The notes: generated by a model not told the origin, from the letters alone. DNA of 64,000 nt from Paraspadella gotoi (GCA_051294375.1 JBJCIZ010001666.1:1-64000); one strand, 5' to 3'; counted from the first letter of the stretch, positions 541 to 49,310 are shown. Translations and numbers: made by a program.

Positions 541-613
541 TCTCTCTCTCTCTCTCTCTCTCTCTTCTTTCTTTCAGTGTACTATATAAATAATTTACTA
601 ATAAATTTTGCCC

Positions 614-650
<37 letters not shown>

Positions 651-770
651 TATATATAAATAATTTATAACAAAATTTTTCCCTTCTCGATGTATATATA
701 AATAATTTACTAACAAAATTTGTCTTCTGATGATATATAAATAATTACTAACAAATTTGTCCACCCTTCT

Positions 771-816
<46 letters not shown>

Positions 817-1642: not shown

Positions 1643-1674
<32 letters not shown>

Positions 1675-1769
1675 CCGTTCGATCTCGAATTTCGGATCTC
1701 TCTCTCTCTCTCTCTCTTCTCTCTCCTTCTCTCTCTCCTCTCTGAACTTCGAATCTCGAAATTTCGGAA

Positions 1770-1808
<39 letters not shown>

Positions 1809-1832
1809 CATTCGAATCTCGAAACATTTCGG

Positions 1833-1870
<38 letters not shown>
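541..1870. repeat. (CT)n microsatellites interleaved with short tandem units; candidate subterminal/TIR region of the Polinton
   Basis: Four copies of TATATAAATAATTTA(C/T)..ACAAA(A)TTT at ~583-760 and repeated (T)CGAATCTCGAAATTTCGGA-like units between (CT)n runs at ~1645-1870. No matching partner end is visible. Confidence 0.6.
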
Positions 1871-1871
<1 letters not shown>

Positions 1872-2078
1872 AGAAGAAAAACCGCTGCTAACTGACGGTC
1901 GAACGAAAGAACTCTCTATCGTTTTTTTAATAGGTAAAAAAAACAGTAATGATTCATCGTATGTACATATATTTATAAATTATTATTGGCAAACAAATAA
2001 TCATGGTGCGAGAATTATTTATATACATATTTACAAGTATCAAAATTATTCCCCTTCTTTTTTTTTCCTAAAATTTCC

Positions 2079-3987
2079 TTATATTTCTCTTTGAGGGCGG
2101 TGGTATTTCGTTAACATTCTTTTTTCGGTGAATTTGATATGAGGGTGATTAAAGGCAAGTTTGCAACGAAAAAACTTCAAGTCCAAGGATTTTAAACTTT
2201 TTTTTGATAATTCAACAAGATACATAAAATGTCTATGACTACGTAACGAACATGATTTAGTATATTGTACATTTTGAAAAATATAAACTTTTTACGTAGT
2301 CCTTCATAACGATTTTTTCCGCCGCGGCACTATCCATCCTTTCAGTCTAATCTTTTTATCATAACTTTCTTTTTTATAGTCGAAAGTCAACAAACTGTAA
2401 GCTTTGGCCTTCAGACCGGCAAACTGCGCGACTATTTGATTCGGGGGTAAGTCGATCTTAAATTTACCATTAACTTTTTCTTCTTTTTTTGCCATTCGAA
2501 AAGAGTGTCCTTTATATCTTCATTCGGTGAAATAAGGATGATCTTTATCCAGATTGCTACGTCCAGTAGCTTGTGTAATTTAGCCAATGATTTATAAAAA
2601 AAATCCGGACCGTCTGACTTTGAATTGAATAATACTTTCAGCATACCGAATCCGTGTCGAGAGCGAGGACTCTCACGTTATTGTTCCCGGGGAAGGTGCG
2701 GAAACTGGGCAATATGAATTCGTGGAGGCATATCTGGAGGTAATATTTTGAAAGTCAAGAACTCCCATCAGTAAAGATGCAGTCGTCCAACAGTACTTTT
2801 TATTGTAAGATTTCGAGTAAATGCAATTTTCTGAAAGATCATCGCGTCGATGAAGGCGTGGTCGGATATGGTCTTCAGCGCCTCTCTTTTCGCTAGTAAT
2901 AAACTTAAAATTTAATCGATTCGCCCTCCCGCCGACGAGCTTGCCGTAGATTACGTTTGAGAGCAATTTTGCTCTAGAGCATTGTATTTTGCTCTTAGAT
3001 TTTGCCCTTAAATCGATATTTCCTTGCACGAACTCTCGAAACAGCACTTTTTGGTAAAAAAAAATAATATTATTGACTCTGCTTAGTTTTACCCCTTTCG
3101 TCAGCAAATACTTAAGAAAAACAAAATGTATGAGATAATGTTTTTTCTTGTTAAAATCTATGATTAATTTTTGAACTTTAGTGTTTTTCGATCCGGTTTT
3201 GGCCATAAGAATCTTAGTGAGTGGGGACAGTTCGTCTGGGTCGATGAGTCTGTTTTCGGTCAGAGGGGGGAACATCTCGAACAAATGCTTCGCCCTTTCA
3301 GTGTAAACTAAATCCACATTAAGAAAATAACCTATATTACCAAAATTATCTATGTTATTACCTGAATTAATTAAAAATTCTCTTTTAATCTCTTTCAGTT
3401 CCTGACCCCTCAAATATCGTAAACCGGCATAAGGCAATTTGTATTTTAATAAAATACTAGCGTATAAAGAATTGATATCTAAGGGCAAAATTGAGCAGGA
3501 ATCGTAATGAGGGGTGAGGTGATATGTCAGTCCTCGCCAAATCTCTTCACCCCCCCCTTTTTCCTCTCCCTGGGATCGAGGTTCTCCCGATTTAATATGA
3601 TTTTTTAACTCAAAATTAAAGCTTCTTTCCGCTTCCTCTAATAATTTATCGCTTATTTTAGTTATGTCTTCTGGGATGGGTTTGGTAATTAATTCGTCAT
3701 TCGACTGAGCATAGTTCACGAAGATCCCTGACCAACCCCCCCGTATCGATCGACGAATTTCTTTATGAATATCAATGGATCTGACGCATTCTAATTTTAC
3801 ATTAGATTTATATTTACATGCATCAAACGCAAAGGCTGGTAATGACAAATAACGAGTTATGTCTAATTTAAAGATAGAATATAATTCTTTTCTTAAATTA
3901 ACGATGTTGTCTAATAAGAGACTGGTGTCTAATTTCACGTAAATGCTGGCGTATTCCCCCAAATTTTTACATTTTAATTTATTATAA
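2079..3987 (-). pseudogene. polB: Protein-primed DNA polymerase B copy 1: intronless, 5'-truncated at ExoIII, frameshifted
   Basis: ExoIII-like NLGEYASIYVKLDT, SIRGG, motif A LDINSLY, GYFLNVDLVY, motif B KLLSNVIYGK (ORF 2673-3962). Motif C ALDTDS at ~2648-2665 and KVNGKFK/FAGLKAKAYS (ORF 2304-2495) lie in shifted frames. Confidence 0.92.
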
Positions 3988-4461
3988 CCAGAAAATTTAA
4001 AAGATACTCATCATTTACTCCTAATAATTGACGACCTTATAAACGTGGTTCCTAGTTTATGGATCGAAGACTTATATTGTAAAATAGTTCATCATAGAAT
4101 GGTCAGCGCTATAACTACGATTCACAATATTTTCGAAAAATATCCCGTCTCCTTTCGAAAAATTTCTTTAAATACCAACTTCATTTTGATCACAAAGTTT
4201 ATACGCGACCGCTCAACCTATTTTAAATTGTCTCAACAATTTTCTCCTCAGTGTCCTAGCCTAATATACGAAGCTCATCAGAATTCTCAATATATAAACC
4301 CGCCTTACGGATATCTGTTATTAAATTTTCAACTTTCTTGCCCCGAGAAATTAAGAATAACCACTAATATTTTACCGGACGACCCGGGAGATCCGGTAGC
4401 TTACTTGGAGCGGCATGACGTCGAAAAGAGGAAAGGGTCGACGGGAAGGCGTGGATATTGA
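3988..4461 (+). pseudogene. Genome-packaging ATPase (A32/FtsK-like), C-terminal half only
   Basis: The frame upstream of ORF 4045 reads PENLKDTHHLLLIIDDL (Walker B), then VHHRMVSAITTIHNIF, RKISLNTNFILI, PYGYLLLN and LRITTNILP, as in Polinton ATPases. No Walker A; a stop precedes at 3985-3987. Confidence 0.88.
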
Positions 4462-4852: not shown

Positions 4853-5766
4853 ACGTTAATTTAAAAAAAAATGAAGACGTTCCACCGCCCATGAAATATC
4901 TAGAAAAACTTTATTTGGTTCCCGCTAATCAATATTTATCTAAATTTAAAGAAAATCGGGATGAAACGAAAAAAAAGGATTCTACCTTATTACCCACTAA
5001 CTTAAACGAATCGGGTCTTCAAGATGTCCCACCCGATGTTAAAATTAGAAAATTTAACGATGAATTTATGAGGAATAAAAAGTTAAGCGAGAATGAAACT
5101 TCTAAAGAATGGTCTCAGTTACATCAGAGAATTCATCCCATTATCCAAGATTTGAGAAAAAACACCGAAGAGCGAATTATAAATAAATATGATAAAATTA
5201 AATTGGATCCATACGAAGAAAAAATTTTAAAAATAATAGATGAAATTCCTCAAGTTCATCGCACCGATTCTGACATATATTTTAGAGGCAACTTGGTTGG
5301 CAAAACGAATGATATAATAGATCAATTAATTAGTTCTGGTTCTACTTCTCCATTCGACATTCACACTCAATTATTTTGGATAATTAATCACGGGAAAATT
5401 GATGCACCGTTATTGTCAACTAACGAAAAACCGGACGCCATCGCTGCCGCACCAACCACCCCGGCTTCAACTAAAAAAAAAACTGTGGTCCCACTTCGAA
5501 AAAATACGCCATCTGTTAAAACGCCTAAAACCTCTGGTGTCTCTAAAATAGAAAAAAAACCTGTCCCGGGTTCTCTCACCAACGCTTCTTCTCCATCACC
5601 TATAAAAAAGAAGAAGAAACCCGTGCCGCTTTCTGCCGTTTTACCCGGGGTAAAAACTAGACAACAACAACAACAACAACAAAAGAAAAAAAAACAGGGT
5701 GATGACGACGACAACGACAACGACGACCTTGCCCTCCCACCCGTCTATAAAGGAGTCTTCGACTGA
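4849..5766 (+). CDS. Uncharacterised Polinton protein with Lys/Pro-rich tail
   Basis: 305-aa ORF with ATGA overlap to the previous gene. The N-terminal KLYLVP...PPDVKIRKF motif resembles the usual pre-integrase Polinton ORF. Confidence 0.7.
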   Translation: MNVNLKKNEDVPPPMKYLEKLYLVPANQYLSKFKENRDETKKKDSTLLPTNLNESGLQDVPPDVKIRKFNDEFMRNKKLSENETSKEWSQLHQRIHPIIQDLRKNTEERIINKYDKIKLDPYEEKILKIIDEIPQVHRTDSDIYFRGNLVGKTNDIIDQLISSGSTSPFDIHTQLFWIINHGKIDAPLLSTNEKPDAIAAAPTTPASTKKKTVVPLRKNTPSVKTPKTSGVSKIEKKPVPGSLTNASSPSPIKKKKKPVPLSAVLPGVKTRQQQQQQQKKKKQGDDDDNDNDDLALPPVYKGVFD

Positions 5767-6911
5767 TGAAATTAAAGATTCAATTTTAAAAAACATATAT
5801 TATAGCCCGGATCACCCGGGTTCATTCGGGGGCATCGATAATTTATACAGATATGCCAAATTAAAAATACCCCGGTTAAAAAAAAAGGATGTTAAGGACT
5901 TTCTCTCAAAACAAAACACTCACACTTTATTTAAAAAATCGCGTGATCAACCTAAACATTATCAATCAACGAATAAATTGTTTTTAAATGAAATTTGGGC
6001 CGCTGACTTGGTAGACGTGGGGACCCTTAAACCATACGGGAAACCTTACACCTTTTTTCTTTCCATCGTTGATCAATTTAGTTTTTGTTACGCTCGCCCG
6101 CTGAAAAACAAAACTGGAGGCGAGGTTGCTGCCGCATTTCGATCGGTGTTTGAGGCAAATAATCACGTAACTTGCATGCGGATGCATCTTGATTCTGGCT
6201 CAGAATTGTTTAACAAAGAAGTTAAAGGGTTAATGGAAGAATATGAAATTGAAATGTATACGACTTCCACGAATAAAAAAAGTTATTTAATCGAAAATTG
6301 CTGTATAAAGTAAAAACTGTATAAAGCTTGTTACGCTTTAAAAAATTACAATTGGCCTAAAATTTTACCCTTGGTAATTATATCTTTAAACTTAAAAAAA
6401 CGAAAAGCTTTGGGATGGTTATCTCCTTTTCAAGCAACCTTACCCAAATTTGAATCGCTTCTCAGACAAAAATTTCAAAAAGATTTGCGTAAACACAAGA
6501 AAAAATTTAAAAATATCAAGTATAACATTGACAAGGGAGATTTGGTCAGAATAAAATTGCCGTCAAAACCCTTTAAAAGGGGTTACCATCAGACCTTTGA
6601 AAATGAGTCTCATTTGGTCAAGGATCATTACGGAACTCCGAGATTGTACATTTTAGAAGGGAAAAAAAAAATACTATTTGTGGCAACTGCAAAAGATAAG
6701 TAAACCACCGGAACAAAAAGAGGATTTTCATTCCGTGATTAAAACTAAAGTAATAAATAAAACTACTTTGAGATCGGGACGAAAAGTGGGGGGAACTAGG
6801 CTTTACTTAACGAAACCGGCCAACGAAGAAAAGGCTTATTGGTTAACCAAAAAGCAATTGGATAATCTTAAACATGTTAGAAACTACGCAAGTCCAGTTA
6901 ATGTCGACTGA
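5699..6911 (+). pseudogene. int: Retroviral-like (rve) integrase, split by frameshifts (~6300 and ~6680)
   Basis: IYYSPDHPGSFGGIDNLY, WAADLVD, VDQFS, MHLDSGSEL, KKSYLIE (DDE triad), followed by GDLVRI...FKRGY and a chromodomain-like tail in ORFs 6371-6703 and 6678-6911. Confidence 0.9.
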
Positions 6912-7845
6912 CTCAAACAAAAGATTTGAAAATACACATTCAGAATTTAGAAACGCCTTACCCGAACCCATAATTTTAAATAAGAATTATGAAGTAGCCT
7001 TGCTACAAATAAGCCTCATCAACTCATCTTTTAACATAGAAGAAGCATCGAGCGAATATCACAAAGTGATTATATTTGATTGGCTGTACGAAACTCAAAA
7101 TCCCATAATTCCACAACTGAAATTATACGGAGAAGTGTATAATTTTATCCTCCCTCCTGGTCATTACGACTCTCCAGAAATACTATGCGACACAATAAAT
7201 CAGGCAATTTGGAAATCTATTCCCAGATTAAAAGATCAACCGATTTTAGAATTTAACAAAATTAGTAGATACATATATTTTAACGTTACCGATAAGTATA
7301 TCACATTTAGATTGTACGGAGCCATGTTGTTTTTGCTCGGAGCCGTCGCGGACTTGGAAGATGACATTTTTTTTACTTTGGGTAAAGACAAAAGCCCCGG
7401 CATCGTGAGCTACGATTATCCCCTGTATGACAAAGACGGCGCCCCGATTTTAGACAAAGACGGTAAAATTCAAATGGAAAAAAGACTATTGCGAGACACC
7501 TTGCAATCGGTGATCTTGAAGAGCGACGCGGTCAAAACCGATCGATTTTTTTTCAATCCAAATATGAATTTTAATTCCGTTTTGGCGATTTATTGCTCCG
7601 AAGTGCAAATGTGGATCACCGGGAGTTCTTATTCTAATTTGTTAAGAACGGTTCAGATAGATGAAAAAAATTTGGGAGGGAGACAAGAATTCACGTTTAA
7701 AGAATTAATTTTTCATCCGGTTTCTAAATCATTTATCGACACGATTTCTATTTCAATTCGCGACATGCGCGGGAAAAATGCTGGGCTAAGGGCGGGGCCC
7801 ACCATCCTCACGCTCGGGTTTCGCCCAATCAGAAATAGTATATAA
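6874..7845 (+). CDS. Minor capsid protein (penton, single jelly roll)
   Basis: S.DS...FENTHSEFRNALPEPIILNKNYEVALLQIS, LPPGHYDSPEIL, IYCSEV...GSSYSNLLRTV, FHPVSKSFIDTISISIRD...LTLGFR. The ATG at 6901 is the likely start. Confidence 0.88.
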   Translation: MLETTQVQLMSTDSNKRFENTHSEFRNALPEPIILNKNYEVALLQISLINSSFNIEEASSEYHKVIIFDWLYETQNPIIPQLKLYGEVYNFILPPGHYDSPEILCDTINQAIWKSIPRLKDQPILEFNKISRYIYFNVTDKYITFRLYGAMLFLLGAVADLEDDIFFTLGKDKSPGIVSYDYPLYDKDGAPILDKDGKIQMEKRLLRDTLQSVILKSDAVKTDRFFFNPNMNFNSVLAIYCSEVQMWITGSSYSNLLRTVQIDEKNLGGRQEFTFKELIFHPVSKSFIDTISISIRDMRGKNAGLRAGPTILTLGFRPIRNSI

Positions 7846-7880: not shown

Positions 7881-8423
7881 ATGATTCACACGATTAAATT
7901 CCCATTCAAACATTTACCACCTTATCTCAATACCCACTCTACCCGTCCCCCCCCTCAATCTCATTTTTTAAACACGCAAAGGGGACAAGGGGCAATATCG
8001 GGAATATTTTCAAAGTTATTTAGATTTATTCGACCCCTAATCTCTCAAACTACCAAGGGAATCAAACCGGCTTTAAAACTAGCAAAACCCATAGCAAAAA
8101 GGGTTGCCGGGGATTTATTACAAGCTAGTTCATCGGCGGCGGTTGGTGGATTAACGGATCTTATTTCTAAGAAAGGGAAAGAACCTAAGGAATCTTTTAA
8201 GAAAGCGGTTGAGACGGGGAAAACTAACGTTAAGTCCGCTTTAAAAAGGGGGGCGGATAGTTTGATGGAGTCTCTGACTACTACCAAAGATAAACCTATA
8301 AAAGTAAAACGTTTAAAAAAATCTATCAATCAAAAGGGAAAAGGAAAGGGGAAAAAAACAAGGAAAAAAAAAAAGAAGAGAAAGAAAAAAATTAATCCTC
8401 GGTTAAAAATATTTTCAGTTTAA
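7881..8423 (+). CDS. Basic core / membrane-lytic virion protein (pVI/pVII-like analogue)
   Basis: QRGQG followed by the amphipathic AISGIFSKLFRFIRPL; a second QKGKG precedes a poly-Lys tail. Lies between the penton and hexon genes. Confidence 0.8.
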   Translation: MIHTIKFPFKHLPPYLNTHSTRPPPQSHFLNTQRGQGAISGIFSKLFRFIRPLISQTTKGIKPALKLAKPIAKRVAGDLLQASSSAAVGGLTDLISKKGKEPKESFKKAVETGKTNVKSALKRGADSLMESLTTTKDKPIKVKRLKKSINQKGKGKGKKTRKKKKKRKKKINPRLKIFSV

Positions 8424-8449
8424 AAAAAAAAAAAAATCTATCATACAAA

Positions 8450-9823
8450 ATGGCTGAGGACAAAATGGTTCGACCCCCGGGATATCCGGTCAATCAAGAG
8501 TGTATAACGCAAGGATTGGATTTATTTTCTCCTAGTTTGAAACAGTATGGGATAATAGGGACCAGAGTCGAGGCCATTTATTGTTCCACGCCGATCACGG
8601 AAAGTTCTTCGGTGATTTCTTTTGAAGTTTCTCCATCGTCGATGTACACGGATCTTTCTAGTATGGTGTATGAAATAGACTTGACCATAGTTAAGGCAAA
8701 TGGCTCGGATTTGGCGGACTTTGCTCCACCGGGAGCCGATCACTTTGGGAACAGCGTCGGGTTTGAAGATGGAATTGCTTCAACGATTTTTTCCGGATTG
8801 AGTTTTCGGGTTAACGGGGTCAATATTTGCGATTCTTTTAATACCTACGCCTACTTGTGTCATTTCATCAATACCTTGTACTATGGAAAAGATTTAAAAG
8901 ATAATAAACTGCGAATGCAAGGTTTTTTCGGAGACAGAGAATTTGATCAAACCGGGGCTCACGACGCGGCTCCCGCCTCATCGTTTAAAACGCGAGCTTC
9001 TTTAACGAGTGGGAGTAAAGTCATACGTTTGTATTCTAACATTCAAACGGCATTAACCACACAGGGCAAGTTTCTACCTCCAATGTCGACCCTTAATTTA
9101 GACTTCGTTAAGAGCAATTTCAATTTCTGCGTGAGAAGCGACGCAGAAAATGCGGAATCTAAATTTAAAATTTGTATTAAACAAATGAAACTTTTGGTTA
9201 GACGAATCGATGTGATTCCATCGCTGAAGATTTCGTTAGAGCAGGAAATAAATAGCAAAGGAGGAGTGTTATATGGTTCACAAATTATGAGCTGTCGACC
9301 ATACGTCATAAATCAAAATGCCAAGAGTGTGTTTTTTGATGGAATATTTTTTAACAATTTAAAACCCAACACCATAATAATCGCCTTGGTGACCCAAACT
9401 GCATTTTTGGGTTCGGCGAAAAAAAGCCCCTTCGAATTTGGGCATTTCGATCTCCAATCTCTCAAGTTAACCATCGATAACGTGGTTTTACCATTTCCTT
9501 CCGGATTAGAGAATTTAGATTATAAAAACAAAAAATATGAATCCGCTTATTGGACGTTGATCAATCAACATTTTAAGTACAACAGTCCTTGTCCAATTTC
9601 TTACGACGATTTCGCCAATGGATTAGCGATTTACGCCATAGAAACGGGTAGTTATAAAAGTTTCATGGATGATCACGACGAACCGCGTCAAACTTGTACT
9701 TCTAGATTAGAGCTGGGATTCACAAAAGATTCATCGAACCCCGCTCTCGTCCTTTTGCTCATGACCGCCTACAGCGGAAATATTTTCTTAAATTCATCCA
9801 GAGACATCTCCATGGACTATTAA
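8450..9823 (+). CDS. Major capsid protein (double jelly roll, hexon-like)
   Basis: Intact 457-aa ORF: LDLFSP, YTDLSS, QGKFLPP, PNTIIIALVTQTAFLGSAKKSPFEFGHFDL, ISYDDFANGLAIYAIE, ending RDISMDY. Confidence 0.92.
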   Translation: MAEDKMVRPPGYPVNQECITQGLDLFSPSLKQYGIIGTRVEAIYCSTPITESSSVISFEVSPSSMYTDLSSMVYEIDLTIVKANGSDLADFAPPGADHFGNSVGFEDGIASTIFSGLSFRVNGVNICDSFNTYAYLCHFINTLYYGKDLKDNKLRMQGFFGDREFDQTGAHDAAPASSFKTRASLTSGSKVIRLYSNIQTALTTQGKFLPPMSTLNLDFVKSNFNFCVRSDAENAESKFKICIKQMKLLVRRIDVIPSLKISLEQEINSKGGVLYGSQIMSCRPYVINQNAKSVFFDGIFFNNLKPNTIIIALVTQTAFLGSAKKSPFEFGHFDLQSLKLTIDNVVLPFPSGLENLDYKNKKYESAYWTLINQHFKYNSPCPISYDDFANGLAIYAIETGSYKSFMDDHDEPRQTCTSRLELGFTKDSSNPALVLLLMTAYSGNIFLNSSRDISMDY

Positions 9824-9845
9824 TTAATTCCATAATTAATTAATA

Positions 9846-10400
9846 ATGTATTCCTTAGCCATAGATAAAATTTTGGGAAACGATCATTTCGCTGGAAAAA
9901 TATTTTTGGGGAGTCATCCTAGCGACAATTTACCCACCCCCATTAGTCCAGTTTGCGCAATCACCGCCAACCATTCGTCTTCGGAATCCGAAGGGAGTCA
10001 TTGGAGCAGTTTTTACTTCACTCCGGACAAAGTCGTGTACTTTGATCCCGTTGGTTCATCTCCTCTGGTGAATCCCCGATTTGAAAAGTATTTAAAGGAC
10101 AACGTTCCCCCTTCTAAGCCCATTTACTTCAACAATTTTCAATTGCAAAACGATTATTCGGCGACTTGTGGAAATCATAATATTTTATTCGTTCTTTATT
10201 CCGCGCGAAATTATTCGTTAAAAGAAATTTTAGAAGAAGTATATGAAATAAAAGAGAAAAAACATTTAAAAAATCCTTGGTACTTTGACGCCTTAGCTTG
10301 GTCGGTGATCAGCGCCTTCGAAGCCGACCCCACCCCTTTGGTCAACGAAGAAGCCTTTTTTTTCCCCCATTTCATCGAACAACAACAACAAAAAAAATAA
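9846..10400 (+). CDS. Adenain-like cysteine maturation protease
   Basis: Catalytic signature GSHW / YFDPVG / QLQ / TCGNH in a 184-aa ORF directly after the major capsid gene. Confidence 0.92.
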   Translation: MYSLAIDKILGNDHFAGKIFLGSHPSDNLPTPISPVCAITANHSSSESEGSHWSSFYFTPDKVVYFDPVGSSPLVNPRFEKYLKDNVPPSKPIYFNNFQLQNDYSATCGNHNILFVLYSARNYSLKEILEEVYEIKEKKHLKNPWYFDALAWSVISAFEADPTPLVNEEAFFFPHFIEQQQQKK

Positions 10401-12807: not shown

Positions 12808-14908
12808 TTAGCGAGCTACATGATGATCATCATCATCATCATCATCATCATTATCATCGTTCGAACGAGAACGAGAACGAGAACGAAAGCGAGAACAAAA
12901 TGGATGGCCGTAAGGTAAAGAATGAAAACGACTAGTCCAAAAACGTTTCACTTCTAAATTGCTCAAAGAAACTTTGGAGAGAGTTTCGAAATAAATCGCG
13001 TGATCGATGGATCTGAATCCTCTATTAACGTTACTGATCGGGAGATCGGTCAACAAAGTCATCTCGTACTGTCCGTGATCGAGTTCGGCCTCTTTCACGC
13101 AACGCTGAACTCCTTTCGCTTTGACCACGTTAGTGATCTTTTTTTTGAGGGGCGGCGAAACCGAAGACGAAAAATCGCCACCGCCGCAACCGCCGCCGCC
13201 GCCGCCGCCCCCCTCCTCCTTGCCGATGCCGTCGCCATCGAAGCCGCCACCGCTGCCGCCGGCGCTACAGCCAGCGCCGCCGCCGCCGCCGCCCGCGCCG
13301 CTCTCCGTTGGCGGACGACGACGATGATGAGAAAGAAGAAGAACCGCATCCTCGCTAGCCGAAGACGGCACGACACTCCTCTTATCCCCTTGCCCCCCGC
13401 CGCGCGCGCGCCCGCCTGCGAAAAAAAAACTTTGTGTGAGTGAGGGGAGAGAGAGAGAGGGCGAGAGAAAGGGAAAGGAGAGTTATGTCGGATATCGGAG
13501 CGCAAGGCTCGGATACGTTATTACGCATCGGACCGGACTGACCGGGTCAGATCGGACCGGAAAAGGCGCGGCGTGTGGGTGCGGGCCTCCGTGCGGGCGT
13601 GCGACCGCGCGTGCGACCGCGGGTGCGACCGCGAGTGCGACCGCGCATGGGCAAACGGATTTCGGCTTGCGTGTTTGCGCACGCACGGATATCGGCACGC
13701 ATGCGCATTTAAAAAAGTTTTTCACTACCATCTTTCTTTCTTACCGATGATTGATTTTGATAGACTCGGACGTTCCCGCGACAGATCCAAGACCCGTTGA
13801 AATTCGGCTTCCCAATCCACGTCTTCCATCGCGGGGATGGGGAGAGGTGATAAGGGGGGAGTGGGTGGACTCGGTAGAACTCTCGGATCGTCCCTTTGCG
13901 CCGGAGGCAATTCGAAGGGCCACCTGAAATGAAATGAAATGATTAGGATGATTGAGTGAACGAACGAACGAACGAACGAACGAATAAACAAATGAATAAA
14001 ATTTTTTCTACATTTACATTTTACCTGCGAGGGGGATTGACTGGCGAATCGATGATTTCCAAAGAGTACAGCTTGGGTTTGAGAGCGATGCAGGAGACCA
14101 TAAAACGATCCTTCATCTCGTCCTGAAAAAAAAAAAAATGGTTAATGTTTAATTATATAAATCATAATAATAATAATAATAAGAAGAAGATTTCTCTCTC
14201 TCTCTCTCTCTTTTTCTTTCTCTATTTTTTTTTTCTCACCTTCATTTTTCCAACTCGATTTTTGTTGTGATCGGCCCACAACTTGAGCATTGGCATGGCG
14301 TCCAAGTTTTCGCTCCAAAAACTGTGAGAGGGCGAGCTGAAAGACGCGATTATTTTGTGTTTTTTTTATTATTATTAATTTTTTTTCAAAACTCAAAATG
14401 AACGCGCCTTACTAGGAAGCGGCAAAGTCCGTGATGGGCGCCAGGAATTTGAGATCTCTGTAGAACGAAGCCCGTGGATCGTTGTATTTCACGTGATACA
14501 CGAAAGAATCTGAATAATTAAATATATAATGATAATTCATTCATTCATTCATTCATTCATTATTTTATCCATTCCCCTCCCTTTTTCCTCACCGGTATCG
14601 TAGAACATGAGAGAGACTTGCACGTCTTTCCTTTCCGGTGGAAACGCTTCGGAAGCCAAAACCACATGTACTCCAAGCCAACCGTTTCGCGTGGTCCAAT
14701 ATTATGGCTCGGTGAGTTCGAGATTAAGGGTTAGGTGGGTAGCGGGGAAAAAGGGGAAGGGAAGGGAAGGGAAGGGAGGGGAGAGAGGGGATAAAAGGAT
14801 GTAAGGATGAGTGTGAGGGAATAAACGGTGGTGGTGCGTAACCTCGCGTTAAAGAAAAATCTCAGTTCTTTCTCTCGAAATATTTATTATTATAATTTTA
14901 ATAATTAA

Positions 14909-14940
<32 letters not shown>

Positions 14941-16262
14941 ACATTCACCTCCTACGTAGTTAGCTTGACGGATGTTAACCTCGTAGTTATGATTTTGAAC
15001 CAAAAAAAGCGTTTCGGAGATCGGTTTGACCGATTTCATTTCCGGTCGCAATACATATCTCTTTAATTGCTTCGTAGTATTAGCTACTCTGGTAAAACAA
15101 TACCTAAACGGCGACTCGATAAATTTTCCATAATTTGAGTTTACTATCAACTTTGGGATTATTTTGCCAAATTCCGTAGTAGCCTGATTGCGCTTTTCCG
15201 TGTGATAATCGACAAAACTCTTAATAAAATCTCTTTGAGCGAACGAATAAACCGAATATATCTTCTCTAATTTTAATCCTAATTTAAGAACGGTAGCCAA
15301 ATTTCTATAGTAAATAAAATAATGATCTTTGTCATTAAGGTCCGCGATAAGTCTAGGGGTAATATTCACTTTTTGTTTGTATTTACGAGAAAGGAAAAGC
15401 TGAAAAGGACTCAATTCCTCATTTTCTATCTTTCTTTTTCCCGTCAAAGGAGGATACTTGTTTAAGAATAATTTTACATTATCCGGAAAAATAATTTTAA
15501 TTTCGAGAATGCATCTGAGATTAACCCAACAACGAGTAAAAATATAACTAAAATTAATAAAAATGATCGAATCTTTTGTTTTTTTTTTTTTCATCGATCT
15601 CTCGCGACACGCCACGTGTCGAAGAAAAACTAAAAAACCCGAATTATATTTTTAAAACAAAAGACTCACCCGCGAGATTCGCGGCCCGTCCAAGTCAAAT
15701 GCACGCCACCCTCCGTGATGTCTCGAAAGAGAGAATCGATTTCCGCTTGAGAATACTCGTAGAATTCTCCGGTGGGTAAATACTCTGATTGACATTTGCC
15801 ATACCTCGAGGACAGTAATAATAATTATATATTAATAACGGAGATAATGTTTAATGATTAAAAAAAAAAAGCCATGTGTCAAAAAATGACTATGATATAT
15901 TAAGAATACTAAGTATTAAAAGTACTCACAAATTTGTAAAGTCCCAGTATGACAAAAATTCCGCAGTGTCCGAGTTTTCCAAGTGCCCCGCTTCCGTCGA
16001 AATAGCGTAATTCAAACGAGATGACACGCCCGCTAGTCCACCCCTGAGCATCGACTAAAAAAAAAAAAAAAAAAAAAAGCGAAAGAGTTGAAACCGTATG
16101 ATGATGAAAAAAAATCGCGAAAAAAGAGAAAAAAAAGAAAAAATTGATTTCACTCACTTTAAAAGCATAATAAATATGACTTTCTTTTTCGCTGAACAAA
16201 TGAAGTTTGCAATTGGTCGTTTTCAACATGACTTGGAAACTGAATGAAAAAGATAAAGATAG

Positions 16263-16300
<38 letters not shown>

Positions 16301-19300
16301 GGAAGCAACGTCATTGGTTCAATCTCGATAACGTGACAGCATCTCAGCAGCAGCAGCAGCCGTATCAATAGGGAAAGGATTGTTCATTCATTCATTCATT
16401 CATTCATTCATTCATTCGATATCTTCTCACCTAAACGATGGTAGAGTCAAGAAGTGGCAAATATCTAATTGATATTGGTCGTAAGAGCATTGGCGAAACA
16501 TCTGAAACCCGCACTCGAGAAACAATGTGTCTAACGCGCAATAGAATAATGTGAAATTTGCAAGGTTCTTTAGTTGAAACTTTTCAAAAATTTCTAAAGC
16601 GTTTGAGTATGCCTCGTCCGAGATTTCTTTATTGGTAATACTATTGAAAAATGCTTCTTTGGGTGGGATTTTAGTTTCGTGGGCATTACTTAAACTGATG
16701 TAATCATAAAAGAACCCCATTTTCCCGGTGTTAATTATATTAAACAGTTTTTTGTCATATCCATTTTCTTCAAAAAAATTAAAAACTGAAGCGAAAACGT
16801 CTCTCGGATCTTTTTTTCCCTCACACTTGGTACAAAACTCGACCGGGTTATCTCCTTCGTATCGACACTCGGTGCACAAATACTCAAACGTATCCTTATT
16901 CGTTAAAGAAATTATGGCGTCCAAGCTGCTTGGAAGAAATTTATAAGTGTCAACGAACTTAGAACGACATATATTTTTGCAGTTGCATTCATCTTTCTCA
17001 ACCTCTCGAACTAATTGCTCCAATAAATCGCCTTCATATTCATCATCATCATCATCATCATCGCTACTCGAGCTGGTGTCATCTCCGTAAATGCTTTCAT
17101 CATCATCATCATCATCATCATCATCTTTCGATCCTCCTCCTTTGTTCTTCTTCTTCTTACTCAAATATTTATCTTGGCAATTGGAACAACGCCAAATAGT
17201 TTCAAAAGTTATCATTTCTTGAGAGCTTTTAGACAGAACGTTTATTAATTTTTTTAAGGCTCCTTGAGCATTATCATCGGCTAATCCTTGAATAATTAAA
17301 TGCTCATCAAATTTATCGAGGTTGTGTAAGTAGATCGGTATGGATTTACTCTCAAAGTATTTTAAATTACAAGACGAACAGCTTTTTCCCCTGTAGTTAG
17401 AAGGGGGGGGTAAGAAATGATCGTGATCTCTACATCCGGGGTCTGACTCGGTAAAAAGTTTATTGCAGATGAAACATCGAGTGGTCATTTGAAAATCTCT
17501 TTCATCCGCATCGGTCATGTGCAGAGGATACGGATTACCGAATAAAACTTGAAAAATTTTTTGCATTTCATCTCTCATCGCGATGCAAAAGTGTGTCGCT
17601 GCGTCTTTACCCCAATAATAACGGACTCTGTTAAATTCGGGATAGGAAAAGTTTGCCGAAACTATGTAAGAATAAGCGATAGGATACAATTCGCACTCTC
17701 GTTGGAGAGAGAGGTGAAGTTTGGAACAGGGCTTCAAAAAACTGCAGATTGTACACTTGGTCACGTGGCGAATATCATTCGAAGATTTGACCCATGGAAA
17801 CCTCGCCTTAATTTCATCGGGCACAGATTCTAAGCCAGGGTCTGGTTGAGGAGAAACAAACGCTTTGGTTCCTCTCTCGGTTTCAAAGTCGGCAAATACG
17901 AGAATTCGTCTATACAGTTTTGCTTCGAAGCGAGTAAAAGACAAAAAAGAGTTTTCGGGTGAAAAACGAATGGCTTGTTTGATCTCGTGTTCTCTACACA
18001 AACGTTTGTGTTTGGTTAGTAACTCTTGCTTCGTAAAACACATTAAGCAATAATAACAAACTGATACTTTTGATTTGTGACCACCGTAGTTAGAAGCAAC
18101 GAGACGAGAGAGATTTGTAATGGCAATTACGTGGCGAACTGTTTCATTATTTTTCAAGGGAAGTAATAAAAGATTAACGATGGTTATTCCATCATTTTCA
18201 ATTTTTGAAGAAATTTTATATGGAAAAAAAATCAATCTGCGACCAATTTTACTTTTTTTCTTCTTCTTTTTTTCATTATTTTCTTTCTTTCTTTTCTTAC
18301 TCTTTTTAGTGTATTGATAAATGTTAATTGCTAGCCAAGAATTTCGTTCCTCAATCTCAATTATGTCATCGATACTCAGTGGTCCGGTCAAATGACCCAC
18401 ATCTAAGGATGGTAAAAAACGAAAATAACTAGTTTTTCTGTTTTTATTAGATGAAACTTTAGTATGAAACAAGGCCGCTAATATCGAATACAAAACGCAG
18501 TTGTCTCTTTCGACAGTTTCAATAACATTAATCGTAGCCTTTTTAGTGGATATAATGGGATCTGTATTTTTAAAACAACCAATCAAGGTGCCTCGATTAG
18601 CTACCTTAATGATGGTCAAATCAGTTCTCAATATGGAGTCAAAAACTAAATTACTTCCCGATTCGACCTTATCTTGCGTCAAAATAGAGACTCGGCTCAA
18701 GGTTTTCTCCAAACTTTCGTTCAAGTCTGATCCTTGATACAACATTCGACTGGGATTATCAAAATAAAAACCCAAGTGAGTTACTTCGCCAGTACTAACA
18801 TTTGTTTTTCGAAAACGAATCAAAAATGTGAGATGGTATTTGATGGTTAGATATTTGTCCAAAAATTCTTTCAATAATATCTTTAACTGATTTCTTAAAT
18901 GATAAAGTTGAAATTCGTAATCTCCTAAAAAGTTAGATTTATCTTCATCTTCATCCTTAAATTTTAACTCAATGGTTTGAATAATATTTTTTTTAAACTT
19001 TTTAGATACGATATCAAAATACTCGGAAAATAATTTATCATCCTCTTTTTTCTCTCTCTCTTTCTCCCATAGTTCTTTCTTCTTCTTCTTTTCTTTTCCT
19101 TTCTCTTTCTCTTTCTCTTTATCTTTCTCTTTCTCCTCATTTTTTTTTTCAACCCTTTTCCCTTATCTTTATTTATCCCACTAACCCCTTTTCCTCGCTG
19201 AACGATCGATTTTTTAAATCCTGGTAAACCCCAAAACTGGGTCGAAGTCCCTTGACTCGCGCAGCTACTAATGCCCCCGCCGCAGCTGCTGCTGCTGTTA

Positions 19301-19527
19301 AAAATGCCGCTGTTCGATCCTTGGAATACGTCTGGTGAGATGTCTGCCGAGCTTTCGCTCGAATCGAATCTAGGAAAATCTTTTTGACTATAATCGAATA
19401 GTATATTTTGTTTTGTCGACAGATCGACCGGTCGATCTTCGTCGCCATTCTCTCCTTCCCCGATAGAGTCATTTTTCATTTTTGTTTTTTTCTTAACGCT
19501 TAAATCTAAAGGTTCATCGCCTTCCAT
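12808..19527 (-). CDS. polB: Full-length protein-primed DNA polymerase B copy 2, with vOTU-like and endonuclease-VII-like domains, interrupted by 10 spliceosomal introns
   Basis: Exons 19527-16431, 16239-16158, 16054-15930, 15804-15670, 15514-14949, 14707-14593, 14509-14413, 14336-14240, 14122-14025, 13923-13745, 13415-12808. Motifs ADFET, HNLDKFD, YCALD, SMLRGG, YWDFTNLYG, KLIVNSNYGK, FYDTDS, VGKMKDE, LKPKLYS, KAKGV, SLPYGH. Two apparent indels (A-run ~19140-19149; ~14670-14680). Confidence 0.93.
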
Positions 19528-19588
19528 GTTTTGTCTGTAATCATTAAAAAATTTCAAAATAATTTTAATGTTTTTTTATTTTTCATAA

Positions 19589-21816: not shown

Positions 21817-22587
21817 TCATTTAACTCCTTTCACATTCTTTTTACAGTTCGCAACGAAAAAAAATCGAGAAGAGCGATTAACTCTGTCCTTGGTCAGAGA
21901 CAATCCGAAACAGACAGGCGAACAAAAGAACAAAGAGCTAGAATGGGTTTCGTAAACGTATGGTTTTATCTGCATGGTCGCCTTCGCGACGGCCGAGGTT
22001 TGCGGACGAAAGACGCTGATGGCATAAGCCAAATGACTCGAAATCGGGAACTTCATGCCGGATAAACTATCCACGTTATGCGCTAAACTTTCTTTCTTGT
22101 CAAAGTTAGATTTTAAATCCCCTTCGTCCCACATCTCGATCAACTTCCGGGCTTCTTCGTAAGATATGAACAGCTTCAATGGACCAGAAGCCTTCTGCAC
22201 GCGGTCGCTAGACCCCGCCCCGAAAAAGCGTTCCTTAGACACTTTAAAATATCCCTCGCCTCCTTTCTTGTGTTGAACAAAACAGTATTGAGACAAAGGT
22301 TTGATGATCGAACTATAAAAAAAATATAAAACAAAAACCTTACACTATCGTATCGCTAATCTAATTAATATCATTATGAGATACCTGATTCCTTGTACAC
22401 TCGAAATATCAAACGATTCTCCCGCGGTGCTAGGATGGTCATTTCTGTTTATAAATGAATATGCAAAAAACCCATCTTATTTGCATATTCTTTAAGAAAA
22501 ACGCTTGCGCAAAACCCTTCTCTTAAAAAAACCCCTCACCTCATTAATGACACTGGAGTGGAAACGCTTCTTTGACGAAGCATCTGA

Positions 22588-22618
<31 letters not shown>

Positions 22619-22885
22619 GATTCTGCTGTCCTCCCTCCGATTGAATTGACTCCATCCTCACGATCTCAAATTCCTCTTCCTCCACTTCTTCGGCCCTTCT
22701 TTTTTTTATGAAGAAAAACATTTTGTTTTAATCACAAATATTACTTATATTATTATTATTATTATTAATATTATATAATTAATTAATTGTATATAATTAT
22801 TTAGATTAATAAAAAAATTTAAAAATAAAGCTTTATCGAATCATTTTTTTTCTCACCTTTTGTTGCCATTTGGGGTTGCCATCAT
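21817..22885 (-). CDS. Spliced 4-exon gene (poly-Q N-terminus, possible PC4-like C-terminal domain)
   Basis: Exons 22885-22857 (MMATPNGNK), ~22699-22540, 22444-22385, 22312-21817 join in frame via phase-2 GT-AG introns. The PC4-like call is weak. Confidence 0.65.
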
Positions 22886-23414
22886 GTTTGATTGTATTCC
22901 GATTTTACTGAGTGCTTTTTAAACGCTGCTCCTTTCTTTCTTTTTGTCGTTGAATTATTTTATGTAACTTTTCCCTTAATTTAAAATTATATTGAAAGAC
23001 ATTTTAAAAATAAAAAACTATTTAACCTATCAATTATTTTTTTTAATTTTACAATACCTTAGTATTTTATTTTCCTCTTTCAAATTCCCGATAAGTTCGG
23101 AGCAATCCTCAACTTCGTGGTTAAGTATATAAAATTTATATATGTAAGTCCCACAATTCTCACAAAGTTTTTCAAAAGGAGACTTGCAAAGCGGGCAAAC
23201 TGGATAACTCTCAGAATATTTTTTTATTTGAATTACGCACTGATGACAATATAAATGACCTAAAATTAAATATAATTTTAATTCAACTTATTAATTTAAA
23301 AATATCATTTTTTGTAAGAATAAACTAACCTAAAACACAACCAATGCAACGTCTATCAGTCTTATTAAATTTATTTTTGCATACGTTACATATCCCAATA
23401 TAATCGGCGTTCAT
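22882..23414 (-). CDS. Spliced RING-finger protein, SIAH/Sina-like RING plus a second Zn finger (putative E3 ligase)
   Basis: MNADYIGICNVC...GCVL[intron 23329-23260]GHLYCHQC...CPLCK...CENCG...NHEVEDC, then intron 23057-22975. The stop TGA overlaps the next gene's ATG. Confidence 0.75.
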
Positions 23415-23465
23415 TATGCGAAACAAATTTCTCTTTTGTGGTCGCGCGTGAGAAATTCCATTCGG

Positions 23466-23472
23466 TTTTATA
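23466..23472 (-). promoter_or_regulatory. TATA box upstream of the RING gene
   Basis: TATAAAA on the minus strand ~50 bp upstream of the ATG at 23414, after a C-rich stretch. Confidence 0.45.
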
Positions 23473-24214
23473 CCCAAGGGATCCTAGGGGTCCGTTGAGG
23501 GGGGTGGGGGAGTAGAGGGGGGAAGAGGGAAATCTAATGTACTCAGGGTCGGTAAAAATAATCTCCAATTGTCAATCAAATAAATCAATCCTTTCAATGT
23601 CAAGTACATTAACAACAACAACAACAACGAAACAAAATATTTTTTCTGGGTGAAGATTACGATTTTTCTTAAAATCATAAAAAGATAAGAAGTCTCCAAG
23701 TTTTTTATATTATAATTTTAAATTTTCTTAACTTCAAGCAAATCTTTGTATCTCGTTTCATTATTCTCCTTTTGCTCTCTCTCTTTCGCGTCTCTCTTCA
23801 TTTTTTTTTCTACTTAAAGTTAGCCTTCGCCTTCGTTCCTTTACCTTACCTTTCTCTTTCTTCCTCTCTCTATCTTTCTTTCAAAAATGTATTTCTTTTT
23901 CTTTATTTCTCTCTTTTTCTCTTTCATTATAAATACTAAATCCCAATTAAACCCGAGTCGCGTTCATCACTGGACAACGCCCTTGAGAAGTAAGTTCGCA
24001 ACAGATTGTTATTCTCATACAGTATTACTCTTTTATGATTTTTCCGCAAATGTACGAGAAATACCAAAATTGTTTTTTTTCTTTTTCTTATCGTTAAAAA
24101 TAACAAGATGAAAGTCTATTCCATTGTTTTTACTTTCTCTTTTTTCCTCTTCCTCTTCCTCATCTACTCTTTCTTGATAACTAAAGTAAAACGAAAATTC
24201 ATAACCGGGTAAAA

Positions 24215-24550
24215 ATGGATTCCTCATCCGATAGCGATTATGGTTCTGACGACAATAACCAAAATAACTTCAACCCTAACCTTATTAACCCTAACCTTAT
24301 TAACCCTAACCCAACCCGCGCCCTTGTAGTATATAACCATTCGTGGTATATCAATAGAATCAATAATACCGCCTATTACCACGATCTATTTACCCCCACC
24401 ATTTTACCTATAACCTTCCCCGCCCATTTAGTCCAAATTAATTCCCATTTACTCCCATTTAACATCGCCCAGCAAATAATTTTCCCAACTTTCATAAACC
24501 CTCAACCCCACCACCATATCGCTATCAACCCATTCGAACCTATGGTTTAA
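24215..24550 (+). CDS. Small Asn/Pro-rich hypothetical protein
   Basis: 111-aa ORF with a good ATG context (aaaaATGG) and NPNLI repeats. Confidence 0.4.
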   Translation: MDSSSDSDYGSDDNNQNNFNPNLINPNLINPNPTRALVVYNHSWYINRINNTAYYHDLFTPTILPITFPAHLVQINSHLLPFNIAQQIIFPTFINPQPHHHIAINPFEPMV

Positions 24551-24554
24551 TTAG

Positions 24555-25609
24555 CGAAATGGGCGACGACGACGACGGCGGCAACGTGGACAAAGACGAA
24601 TGAAGTATCGAAGAATACGCCGGTGACGTCACAAACCACCTTCCATCGAACAACGTCACCGGCTAAATTCTCATTTTCGTCCACGGGGTCGGTGACGTCA
24701 GAGACCATTTTTATGTCATCACTGGCAACGACGTCACCGACCACCCCAAACAACATCCCGTCCTCCGTCTCGTCGTCCGTAATAGTCCGCCCATCCACGA
24801 ACGCGGTCTCAACCTCCTCCATCACGCCGGTGACGTCACAGACCTTTTCTCAATGGGCAACGACGTCACCGGTAAGCCCTTCCGTCTCATCCTCCGTGCC
24901 CTCCTCCGTCCCATCCTCAATGCCCTCCGTTCCATCCTCCGGTCCGTCATCCTCAATGCCCTCCGTTCCATCCTCCGGTCCGTCATCCTCAATGCCCTCT
25001 GTTCCATCCTCCGGTCCGTCATCCGTCCCGTCGTCTACAAATTCCCTCTCCTCCTCCTCCTCCATCGCGTCGGTGACGTCACGGACCTTATTCCCATGGG
25101 CGACGACGTCACCGGCGACCCTCATCTCCTCCCCTAAAAATTCTTCGGCGAGGTCATCATCATCATCGTCATCAACGTTTGAGACGTCGCCGATGTCAAT
25201 ACCATCTACATCGGCGACGTCACCGGGATCAAAGACGACGCCGTCCATGCCGATGACGTCACCAAAGGCGCCAACAACTGCGGTGACGTCAACGGCGTTG
25301 GCGGATCCAAGATCAAGTGATCAAAACAAGTAAAAAAAATTAATGTGAATATTTTATATTGTTAAATGTTATCATCATATTTCCGTTTTTCTAATTCAGT
25401 TTTTTTATTCTTTTTCATAGTTCAAATTGGATTTTGATGACAATTGGACTGGGAAATTTGTTAATTTTAGTTTTATTTTAATTTTCGTTATCGTTATTTT
25501 TAAAAAAGTTAAAAGTGTAAATTCAAATTCAAATGAGAGAAAAAAACTAAAGTCAACAAACATCACGAAGGAAGAAAGAAGAAAGATGCCGAAGCTCCCC
25601 CCCGTGTAA
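24555..25609 (+). CDS. Mucin-like Ser/Thr/Pro-rich type I membrane protein, spliced (5' end unresolved)
   Basis: TTSP/SSVPSSGP repeats (ORF 24623-25333), intron 25330-25420, then WILMTIGLGNLLILVL...IFVIVIFKK transmembrane segment (1-nt indel) and a basic tail. Confidence 0.6.
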
Positions 25610-26288
25610 ATATGTTCTCCCCATTTTTCCCCCAACCCAAAAAATTGGCCACGGTAAAAAACCCTGGATTAAGCCAAATCAATTTGTTCAACCAGAGAAA
25701 ATATTGAATTTTCAAATCTTTCCCAAGAATTAAATGAAAATGAAGATGACGATATGTACTTTTTGAATCACAACATTTTATATCAAAGTACATTATGTCA
25801 TCTTCTTTTTCATTTAATTCTTGGATATATTGAAAATTTATTTATTTTCCCTTTGTTGAACCAAATTTTAAGTTAATCTATGTTTTTTACGGTGGTCAAT
25901 TTTTTGGGTAATTGTATGTTCTCGTTCTGTTTTTTTTTATGTTCACTGCTATAAATGTTAATAATTATATTATTTCTCGTAGTCATAACAAAGGTGTTTA
26001 ATTCATTGTAAACAGTATCTACTGTAAATGTTAATCGAAATCCTCTGTTCATCATATGGAAAAATTCTCAGGGTAAAAATTCGTATTTGTACTTAAGTAT
26101 TATCAATGATTCGAATTCAAAAACGGTTACGTATTTTCAAAAAAAGATCAAAGTCCAATCTTTGTAATCTCAGATCGACCACTCGAGTTTGCCGAGTTTG
26201 AAATCAGAGAGGAGATAGCGACGGAGAATTAAAAGAGAGATAGAGATAGCGATAGAAATTAAGGGAATTAAAAAGGAAAGTGATCTAG

Positions 26289-27406
26289 TCCCCGTGTCGG
26301 TTTTGGATCAAGCTGCCAGTCCCCGTTCGAGGTTCTATGACAAACTGCAGACCCCGTTTTTTATTATCTCTTACCGGTAAGGAAAAGGAGAGATGCAATG
26401 TTTAAAAATAAATTATATTTAATGCATTAAAAAATAATGTTTCATTTCTTTTTCAGAGCAATTACCTTTGACGAAGAAGCCAAAGAAGGGAAAGAAGGGG
26501 AAGAAGGAGAAGGAAGCGGAGGCCCGGGCGGAGACGACAACAACAACGAGGACGGTGACGACGAAAGAAGCAGCAGCTGTCTTTCGACCTGCAGTTGCAG
26601 AGCGGTCAAAGTAAGTTTTCAAATGATATGAATTCAATGCAAAAACAAAAAACAAAAAAACAAAACAAAACAAAAACTCGAACATTTCTTGCTCCTTTCC
26701 TAGTTCAACACTTATTATGAGTGTTGCTATTGCAACGACCGAAACTTCCTTCTTTTCGCCCTCACCTTCCTCTTCATCGGCGTCGTACTCGCCGTCTCCA
26801 TCTGTCTCGAGCAGTGTCGAGACTTCGGTTGCCAGTAGTTTCAAGTAAGATTTAAAATTGATTAATTGATTGATTGATTGATTGGTTAATTTAAAAATTG
26901 ATGAAAAATTATTTTTTCTCTTTCTCGTCCATTTCAGCATTGGCATTGGTATTGGCATTGCGGCAGCGGTCGGCCTCCTCTTCGTCCTCGTCCTCGGCGT
27001 CGTTCGGTGCTGCGCCAAGCGTCGACGTCGTCAAACGCGGTGCCACAACTCGGACGAGGAAACGGGGATGGAGGATTTGACCTGCAGCCCCAACGCCATT
27101 CCATTGCAGGGGTTGAGGAGAGGGCGCGGAGGAGAGGAAGAGGAAGCGGAACCGGCAACGGCGGAAACGATGCTGTCGCGCCCGCCAACCAGGAGGAGAA
27201 GGGCGAGGTTGGGATCCTCATCGAATCTCGATCCCGCCAGCGTCGTGGGGATTTTGGAGGAGAGGCTGGAGGGGATGAGGATGTCGGAGTTGGTGAGGAG
27301 AGAGGAGGAGGAAGATGAGTGGGAGACGATGGAAGGGAGGAGAAGCGGGACGGCGGCGGAAGCGGCTGCAGAGGCAAGGGAGTGGGCGGCTGAGGCAGAG
27401 ACGGTG
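26289..27406 (+). CDS. Second spliced type I membrane protein with S/T-rich stalk; both ends unresolved
   Basis: Introns 26377-26456, 26611-26703 and 26845-26937 join in frame to the TM IGIGIGIAAAVGLLFVLVLGVV-RCCAKRRRR and an acidic cytoplasmic tail running into the gap. Confidence 0.7.
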
Positions 27407-49150: not shown

Positions 49151-49310
49151 TTCTCGCAGCTGTAGATGACCCTCGACCCGCGGTCCTCGACCCTCGAACC
49201 TCAACAGGGCNNNNNNNNNNNNNNNNNNNNNNNNNNNNNNNNNNNNNNNNNNNNNNNNNNNNNNNNNNNNNNNNNNNNNNNNNNNNNNNNNNNNNNNNNN
49301 NNNNNNNNNN

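Follow-up and report, generated by a model that had tools for sequence, protein, structure and literature searches.

Background

Surveys of Polintons, or Mavericks, presume unbroken genes, and a polymerase gene split by introns would be dropped from them or scored as a fossil, which would bias copy numbers, host ranges, and trees. In the accessible text of PMC8097293, intact vertebrate Mavericks are without introns, and only intronless elements are counted as intact. A prokaryotic gene caller was chosen in another study since endogenous viruses "do not contain introns" (PMC10120064, excerpt), and a Polinton survey kept open reading frames (ORFs) of at least 900 residues for pPolB, the protein-primed DNA polymerase (10.1101/2023.08.22.554363, in the part available). 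Nematode Mavericks have intronless core genes, whereas their cargo genes, which are host-derived wasp proteases, contain introns (10.1101/2022.07.12.499685, excerpt). The closest precedent for the locus described here is the presence of introners in dinoflagellate eupolintoviral proviruses (PMC12166617, accessible sections). The locus lies in a stretch of 64,000 nucleotides (nt) from Paraspadella gotoi (GCA_051294375.1 JBJCIZ010001666.1:1-64000), hereafter the window, whose minus strand carries a Polinton pPolB gene divided by ten GT-AG introns, of which introns 1 to 8 are firm and introns 9 and 10 are likely.

No published account of an animal Polinton whose polymerase gene has spliceosomal introns was found, with Repbase and the supplements of papers, which might annotate such exons, lying outside the search. 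The available portions of PMC8502044, 10.1101/2024.03.25.586562, PMC12220804, PMC11296320, and PMC6431247 held nothing relevant.

Structure of the split polymerase gene

An earlier note, made from the sequence alone, had proposed ten introns of 76 to 329 nt for this gene. The gene and its parts are as follows; "blind" refers to the spliced alignments described in the next section.

12808..19162, minus strand: Polinton pPolB gene with ten introns; its junction-masked read-through matches a pPolB profile (E 3.5e-181)
16431..19162, minus strand: exon 1 (about 910 codons), N-terminal region with Cys-rich inserts typical of the subfamily and the exonuclease domain
16240..16430, minus strand: intron 1, 191 nt, phase 2, GTGAGA..CAG, recovered blind with both profiles
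16055..16157, minus strand: intron 2, 103 nt, phase 0, GTGAGT..TAG, recovered blind with both profiles
15805..15929, minus strand: intron 3, 125 nt, phase 2, within motif A, GAG acceptor, recovered blind with both profiles
15515..15669, minus strand: intron 4, 155 nt, phase 2, recovered blind in three of four settings with the 82-protein profile, missed with the 26-protein profile
14708..14948, minus strand: intron 5, 241 nt, phase 1, GAG acceptor, recovered blind with both profiles
14593..14707, minus strand: exon 6, reading frame disrupted in the window
14510..14592, minus strand: intron 6, 83 nt, phase 1, cutting the second Asp codon of motif C
14337..14412, minus strand: intron 7, 76 nt, phase 2, exactly missing from one contig of run X8
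14123..14239, minus strand: intron 8, 117 nt, phase 0, recovered blind with both profiles
13924..14024, minus strand: likely intron 9, 101 nt, phase 2, placed by splice signals and phase only
13416..13744, minus strand: likely intron 10, 329 nt, phase 1, G+C-rich, placed by splice signals and phase only
18964..19575, minus strand: 203-codon frame (ATG at 19527) with two PxDLS-like motifs, overlapping the 5' end of the polymerase in another frame

All ten intervals do begin with GT and end with AG on the minus strand, and their lengths are as proposed. The donor is GTRAG in 8 of the 10 introns versus 11 of the 283 GTs (3.9%) across 12808-19162 (p ~2e-10), in keeping with the claim that donors are mostly GTGAG or GTAAG; the remaining two are GTGAAT and GTAAAA. 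Acceptors are YAG in eight introns, with the rarer GAG in introns 3 and 5. A branch-point-like YTRAY, whose chance rate was not controlled, is present in seven of the ten, and the pyrimidine share is 0.55 to 1.0. The G+C fraction of introns 2 to 9 is 0.21-0.30 except for intron 5 (0.37), rising to 0.40 in intron 1 and 0.58 in intron 10; that of most internal exons is 0.47-0.57. From the first intron to the tenth the phases are 2, 0, 2, 2, 1, 1, 2, 0, 2, and 1 (five of phase 2, three of phase 1, and two of phase 0), and every exon but exon 6 is open and in phase with the one before it.

Read without its introns, the pPolB has intact Exo I-III, motifs A and B, and KxY. Two introns fall within catalytic motifs, as had been noticed: intron 3 in motif A, and intron 6 in the second Asp codon of motif C. 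Next to introns 9 and 10, exon 10 together with the beginning of exon 11, some 185 low-complexity codons, has no profile match.

The note's remark that an ORF finder misses most of the polymerase domain also holds. Exon 1 (911 codons) has no Pfam match, and only one exon, exon 5, passes Pfam DNA_pol_B_2 (PF03175), narrowly, with 27.1 bits versus a cut-off of 25.8.

Upstream, a weak in-phase GT-AG pair at 19185-19022 could join the upstream ORF to the polymerase and is kept as a candidate eleventh intron. The two PxDLS-like motifs of the 18964-19575 frame are presumably of the CtBP-binding type.

Recovery of the introns by blind spliced alignment

The boundaries in the earlier note had been chosen to fit, so that phase agreement alone would be circular. 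Three independent tests were used instead: alignment to homologues, public sequencing runs, and constraint. For the first, one profile was built from 26 of the 27 pPolBs matched by exon 1, a protein of 671 residues being excluded, and a second from 82 full-length uninterrupted pPolBs. Our own GeneWise-like spliced aligner was then given no intron coordinates.

When an X was placed at each junction and exon 6 was masked, the read-through matched the 26-protein profile at the E value listed above, with junctions 1 to 8 on consecutive columns. The claim that splicing joins the conserved motifs in frame is thereby borne out for introns 1 to 8, while introns 9 and 10 have only their splice signals and phase. 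De novo alignment with the 26-protein profile returned introns 1, 2, 3, 5, and 8 exactly, and with the GT-AG rule switched off, gaps still began within 8 nt of donors 1, 2, 3, and 5. With the 82-protein profile, introns 1 to 6 and 8 were exact in two of four penalty settings, together with the donor of intron 7; six introns were exact in the other two. Control alignments to the opposite strand and to reversed DNA scored 19, versus 375-446 for the true strand. The spliced alignment of known pPolBs that the earlier note had suggested as a check places its gaps at the proposed GT-AG boundaries for introns 1 to 6 and 8 and for the donor of intron 7.

The aligner also makes false gaps in open frames; hence, each gap was judged on its splice signals too. 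Three gaps that it placed within exon 1 were not accepted as introns: the frame there is open, and relatives also have Cys-rich or acidic inserts.

Public sequencing runs and sister copies

The stretch is present in seven public DNA runs of one organism, none of them on record as RNA, and an eighth run, X8, is RNA by guess. Contigs of four runs (X1, X2, X5, and X8) were compared with the window. One X8 contig of 233 nt covers 14240-14335 and 14413-14522 with a single letter between them, so that intron 7 is precisely removed, and this contig fixes the intron 7 acceptor. Its identity to the window is about 92%, i.e. it comes from a sister copy, and its match ends at 14240, the donor of intron 8. 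No joint is present at any of the ten introns in DNA runs X1, X2, and X5; X2 has the variant letters of the X8 contig without the joint, and a contig of X1 spans intron 3 with zero differences. The X8 contig fits a spliced transcript, with an intronless DNA copy as the alternative.

The contigs from sister copies, with identities of roughly 85-92%, match the exons and stop at the exon edges 14949 and 14240. Among the differences between copies, 39 of the 40 shown (of 177 in total) lie in exons, and 30 of these 39 are at codon position 3 (p 3e-8). Given this bias toward third positions, the introns are likely older than the present insertion. Near-identical pieces of this pPolB copy were found in three samples.

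The break in the exon 6 frame had been put down to a single indel near 14675. This is an oversimplification: in and next to exon 6, the contigs of two further samples show length differences to the window at two or more sites (X1 has no cover there). Given these length differences and the noisy stretches that the assembly has elsewhere, the break is probably an assembly error.

Interrupted polymerases in related elements

Relatives were examined at the protein level among the best 150 of 4657 pPolB matches. Thirteen of these share Cys-rich inserts with exon 1. In a 46-row tree, the window protein, the 13 Cys-insert relatives, and one uninterrupted protein are grouped (Shimodaira-Hasegawa-like approximate likelihood ratio support 98); the tree test neither establishes nor rejects a clade of exactly 14 rows. 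None of the 13 reaches the polymerase C-terminus, versus 63 of the 137 others, and for several the last residue is identical across many contigs. In P0188 and P0193, stretches resembling introns are translated through in frame. Of all 150 proteins, 87 end early, 16 of them without a testable tail. A donor-like residue pair terminates 20 of the remaining 71, over a background of 7.8% (p 3e-7), with the ends concentrated immediately ahead of the RGG motif (5 proteins) and near motif A (8). Judged by their sequences, the polymerases of the closest relatives also look interrupted. A Cys-insert alignment search found no DNA of the 13 relatives in viral or metagenome contigs, and exon 5 alone, used as a query, had no match in viral contigs or among exon-sized proteins.

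At the DNA level, 104 distinct contigs were aligned (9 + 80 + 15), the 80 being the best of 472, a choice that favours unbroken genes. Clear introns are present in 4 of the 104: four in L008, two in L084, and one each in L003 and L058. The split gene of the window is less unique than the earlier note had implied. Further aligner gaps in other Polinton loci were rejected by eye because they lacked pyrimidine tracts or were in-frame inserts; for the last 15 contigs, this judgement rested on the end hexamers only.

Both L008 and L084 have an intron at the exact site and phase of window intron 6, in motif C, and the second L084 intron is one codon from window intron 5. The polymerases of the window, L008, and L084 are only 26-32% identical (26-27% for L008 and L084 to the window protein), and a single clade of the three, a group defined by the intron and not by a tree, is rejected (approximately unbiased test, p-AU 4e-7). 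Since the carriers are distant and one clade is rejected, the motif C intron would be either very old and often lost or gained repeatedly.

Two side observations concern these contigs. L003 (3076-3159) and L058 (1999-2102) have one intron at the same site and in the same phase, in pPolBs that are 78% identical. In L008, the first polymerase intron (3717-4369, 653 nt) holds an antisense ORF of 150 codons. This ORF looks dUTPase-like and would be a gene nested in a viral intron.

Neighbouring genes

The genes around the split polymerase are listed here.

2040..4007, minus strand: second pPolB, C-terminal half, no introns, with frame breaks (Pfam DNA_pol_B_2, E 4.7e-16)
3988..4461, plus strand: likely packaging ATPase, C-terminal piece (tblastn to 3 of 89 Polinton loci, best 8e-13)
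5654..6703, plus strand: rve integrase with an in-frame stop and no introns (PF00665, E 6.9e-7, just under the curated cut-off; 21 of 89 loci)
6847..7845, plus strand: intronless gene, likely for the minor capsid protein (2 of 89 Polinton loci matched weakly by tblastn)
8396..9823, plus strand: intronless gene, likely for the major capsid protein (matched by tblastn in L067, 5e-23, and L008, 1e-16)
9840..10400, plus strand: intronless gene, likely for a cysteine protease of the adenain type (Pfam Peptidase_C5, E 0.018, short of the curated cut-off; 1 of 89 loci)
21817..22885, minus strand: small gene with three GT-AG introns, without a family match
22912..23414, minus strand: gene for a RING finger, divided by two GT-AG introns, of which the first cuts the RING motif (exon 2 matches Pfam zf-C3HC4_3, E 5e-4)

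The capsid ORFs match like-placed ORFs in L067, L008, and L077, and no Pfam or PDB sequence match was found for the capsid gene. In Polintons, the major capsid protein is of the double jelly-roll type and the minor one of the single jelly-roll type. The names minor and major capsid protein are presumed from gene order and from these matches, and the ATPase is presumably a packaging enzyme, named on the same grounds. A PC4-like label was considered for the 21817-22885 gene and found to be unsupported.

To the right of the split polymerase lie two intronless ORFs, then the three-intron gene, the RING gene, and a spliced-looking membrane protein gene. The last of these (24551-27406, plus strand) is Ser/Thr-rich and membrane-spanning, with GTAAG donors at 26377, 26611, and 26845. 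The genes on the replication side (the polymerase, the RING gene, and the three-intron gene) are split by introns, whereas the integrase, capsid, and protease block is not. Because the second pPolB and the structural genes are intronless, the locus has not been intronized wholesale. At the left, the intronless pPolB half (from 2040) adjoins the ATPase piece (to 4461), and both are without their N-termini, as if by a single deletion between them. A midpoint-rooted FastTree that paired the two polymerases of the window (support 0.22) was disregarded as a long-branch effect.

A search for terminal inverted repeats between 1-3000 and 12001-64000, and from 23401-27406, found none; assembly gaps begin at 27407, and the left end of the element may fall outside the window. 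Further along, a unit of about 1 kb is repeated at 28366-29290, 38545-39231, and 41560-42700. Single-base indels abound in one copy, which points to noisy gap filling in a gappy assembly. A degenerate tandem array of units of about 49 nt occupies 49300-51350.

Interpretation

The locus is best read as a spliced module for replication within a Polinton lineage that bears introns, rather than as a domesticated gene. The earlier note had left two branches, an intron-rich virus lineage or a viral polymerase retained by the host, and the first of these is favoured by the sister copies with their third-position bias, the spliced contig, the spliced neighbours, and the relatives that also look interrupted. 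Probably the gene is an integrated Polinton pPolB whose Pol II transcript is processed by the major spliceosome, which gives an active enzyme only if fully spliced, and whose introns belong to the lineage and not to this insertion. The adintovirus-like element would be transcribed in the nucleus by the host RNA polymerase II (Pol II), and the ten GT-AG introns would likely be removed by the host's major spliceosome, a step extended to this very copy from its sister. Since intron 6 cuts the catalytic Asp codon and seven introns lie upstream of or in motif C, active enzyme would come only from correctly spliced mRNA. The introns would be a heritable trait of a distinct Cys-insert pPolB subfamily. 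Different lineages would have acquired them at different sites, and at least three distant lineages presumably used the site in motif C. This scheme supposes that the polymerase is active, that both modules belong to one element, and that the host is an animal.

Several observations weigh against this reading. The spliced form is one contig of depth 4 with one intron of a sister copy, from a run that is RNA only by guess. Within the gene, two acceptors are the rarer GAG, the frame of exon 6 is broken in the window, and the first in-frame ATG comes only at codon 140. Introns 9 and 10 are without a homology anchor and imply an unusual insert of about 185 codons. Among the relatives, the uninterrupted protein P0168 sits within the Cys-insert group, the exact 14-row clade has a support of only 6, and the early ends of the 13 relatives could partly be contig ends or lesions. 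With an in-frame stop in the integrase, no N-terminus in either the ATPase piece or the second pPolB, and a search for terminal inverted repeats that found none, this copy of the element may be dead.

The alternative that survives best is compatible with splicing. It holds that the split polymerase and its spliced neighbours form a separate module or tandem element, joined to a Polinton whose own intronless polymerase was crippled by deletion. The two pPolBs are only 23% identical and have no DNA similarity to each other, intron density differs sharply between the two halves, and the intronless pPolB and the adjoining ATPase piece have both lost their N-termini. Tandem and multi-replicase elements have been described (bioRxiv 10.64898/2026.10.13.758929), as has pPolB exchange (10.1101/2023.08.22.554363, in the part available). 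However, no terminal repeat or host-like DNA lies between the end of the plus-strand block at 12483 and the polymerase stop at 12808, and this arrangement, though possible, is held to be doubtful.

A second alternative, which we consider improbable, is that the host domesticated a Polinton polymerase, which then acquired introns like any host gene and has been kept as the remainder of the element decays. It would account for the near-identical pieces in three samples and for polymerase motifs that are intact where the integrase, the ATPase, and the second pPolB are broken. Against it stand one or more diverged sister copies whose exon edges are the same, the viral genes that surround the polymerase, an intron-split pPolB in an apparently complete Polinton (L008), and relatives from other sources that also look interrupted. 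The host-retention branch of the earlier note accordingly has little left to support it in the face of the diverged sister copy and the viral neighbours.

Insertion of the introns by an introner after integration, as in dinoflagellate eupolintoviruses, has that precedent (PMC12166617, accessible sections), and recurrent gain at new sites does require some source. Yet the similarity of the ten introns to one another and to the window is no more than that of microsatellites, the adjacent intronless genes received none, and one intron site is common to distant Polintons; an origin of this kind is very unlikely. Least credible of all is the notion of a dead copy in which insertions or expanded microsatellites go unspliced and are intron-like in appearance only. 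The introns are indeed rich in simple repeats, our aligner makes false gaps in open frames, and in decayed Mavericks the "introns" of GeneWise-type alignments are frequently mere insertions (PMC8097293, excerpt). Even so, this notion is at odds with GTRAG donors in 8 of 10 introns, phase-correct junctions, blind recovery, the exact skipping of intron 7, and the third-position bias.

If the preferred reading, a spliced module of an intron-bearing lineage, is right, Polinton activity could be controlled at the level of host splicing through the intron-split catalytic codon; no result here indicates regulation by the introns. With one intron site in pPolBs that are only 26-32% identical, it can also be tested whether a virus gene kept an ancient intron or gained it in parallel. 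A wider and distinctly tentative extension, which we would not put forward as likely, is that intron-rich animal Polinton lineages are invisible to ORF-based censuses, that the intron site in the motif C Asp codon is ancient or repeatedly chosen and makes replication switchable by host splicing, and that a spliced module is replacing an intronless one in a single element.

Comparison with known systems

Like the animal Polintons or Mavericks (adintoviruses; Eupolintoviridae), the locus combines, within about 25 kb, a pPolB with an exonuclease and motifs A, B, and C, an rve integrase, and genes that likely encode an ATPase, a protease of the adenain type, and capsid proteins. The polymerase and the integrase both place it among the Polintons, with its ends unconfirmed, and the named pPolB matches to the spliced polymerase come from the insects Leptopilina and Uroleucon. 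Unlike animal Polintons, it has a pPolB with ten introns and Cys-rich inserts and a second pPolB alongside, and no terminal inverted repeats were found. An intact Maverick in the canonical sense of Barreat and Katzourakis has intronless core ORFs; here the structural block is intronless and the polymerase has ten introns. The adintovirus definition of Starrett and Buck includes an OTU-like domain on PolB and a chromodomain on the integrase (10.1101/2024.03.25.586562, in the part available). No Pfam match to either domain was found in a general Pfam scan, no dedicated test having been made.

With the dinoflagellate introner proviruses the locus shares spliceosomal-type introns inside a Polinton-like provirus. 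According to the accessible sections of PMC12166617, the dinoflagellate introns are repeated transposon families, mostly post-integration, with about 25% in coding regions. Unlike these, the introns here are unique sequences that are shared by diverged copies, with one site recurring in distant Polintons. Nematode Mavericks, too, contain spliced genes (10.1101/2022.07.12.499685, excerpt), but those are host-derived cargo, whereas here it is the core replicase that is split. Also comparable are the pPolBs of L008, an IMG/VR contig, and L084, which have short AT-rich GT-AG introns, one of them at the site and in the phase of intron 6. They differ from the window gene in having four and two introns, respectively, and in the other intron sites, except for that of L084 near intron 5.

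Adenovirus is a nuclear DNA virus with a protein-primed polymerase, and its early mRNAs need host splicing. The body of its polymerase is one long exon preceded by short leaders, and the catalytic motifs are not known to be cut by introns. The split pPolB would work like a replication gene of a nuclear DNA virus in need of host splicing.

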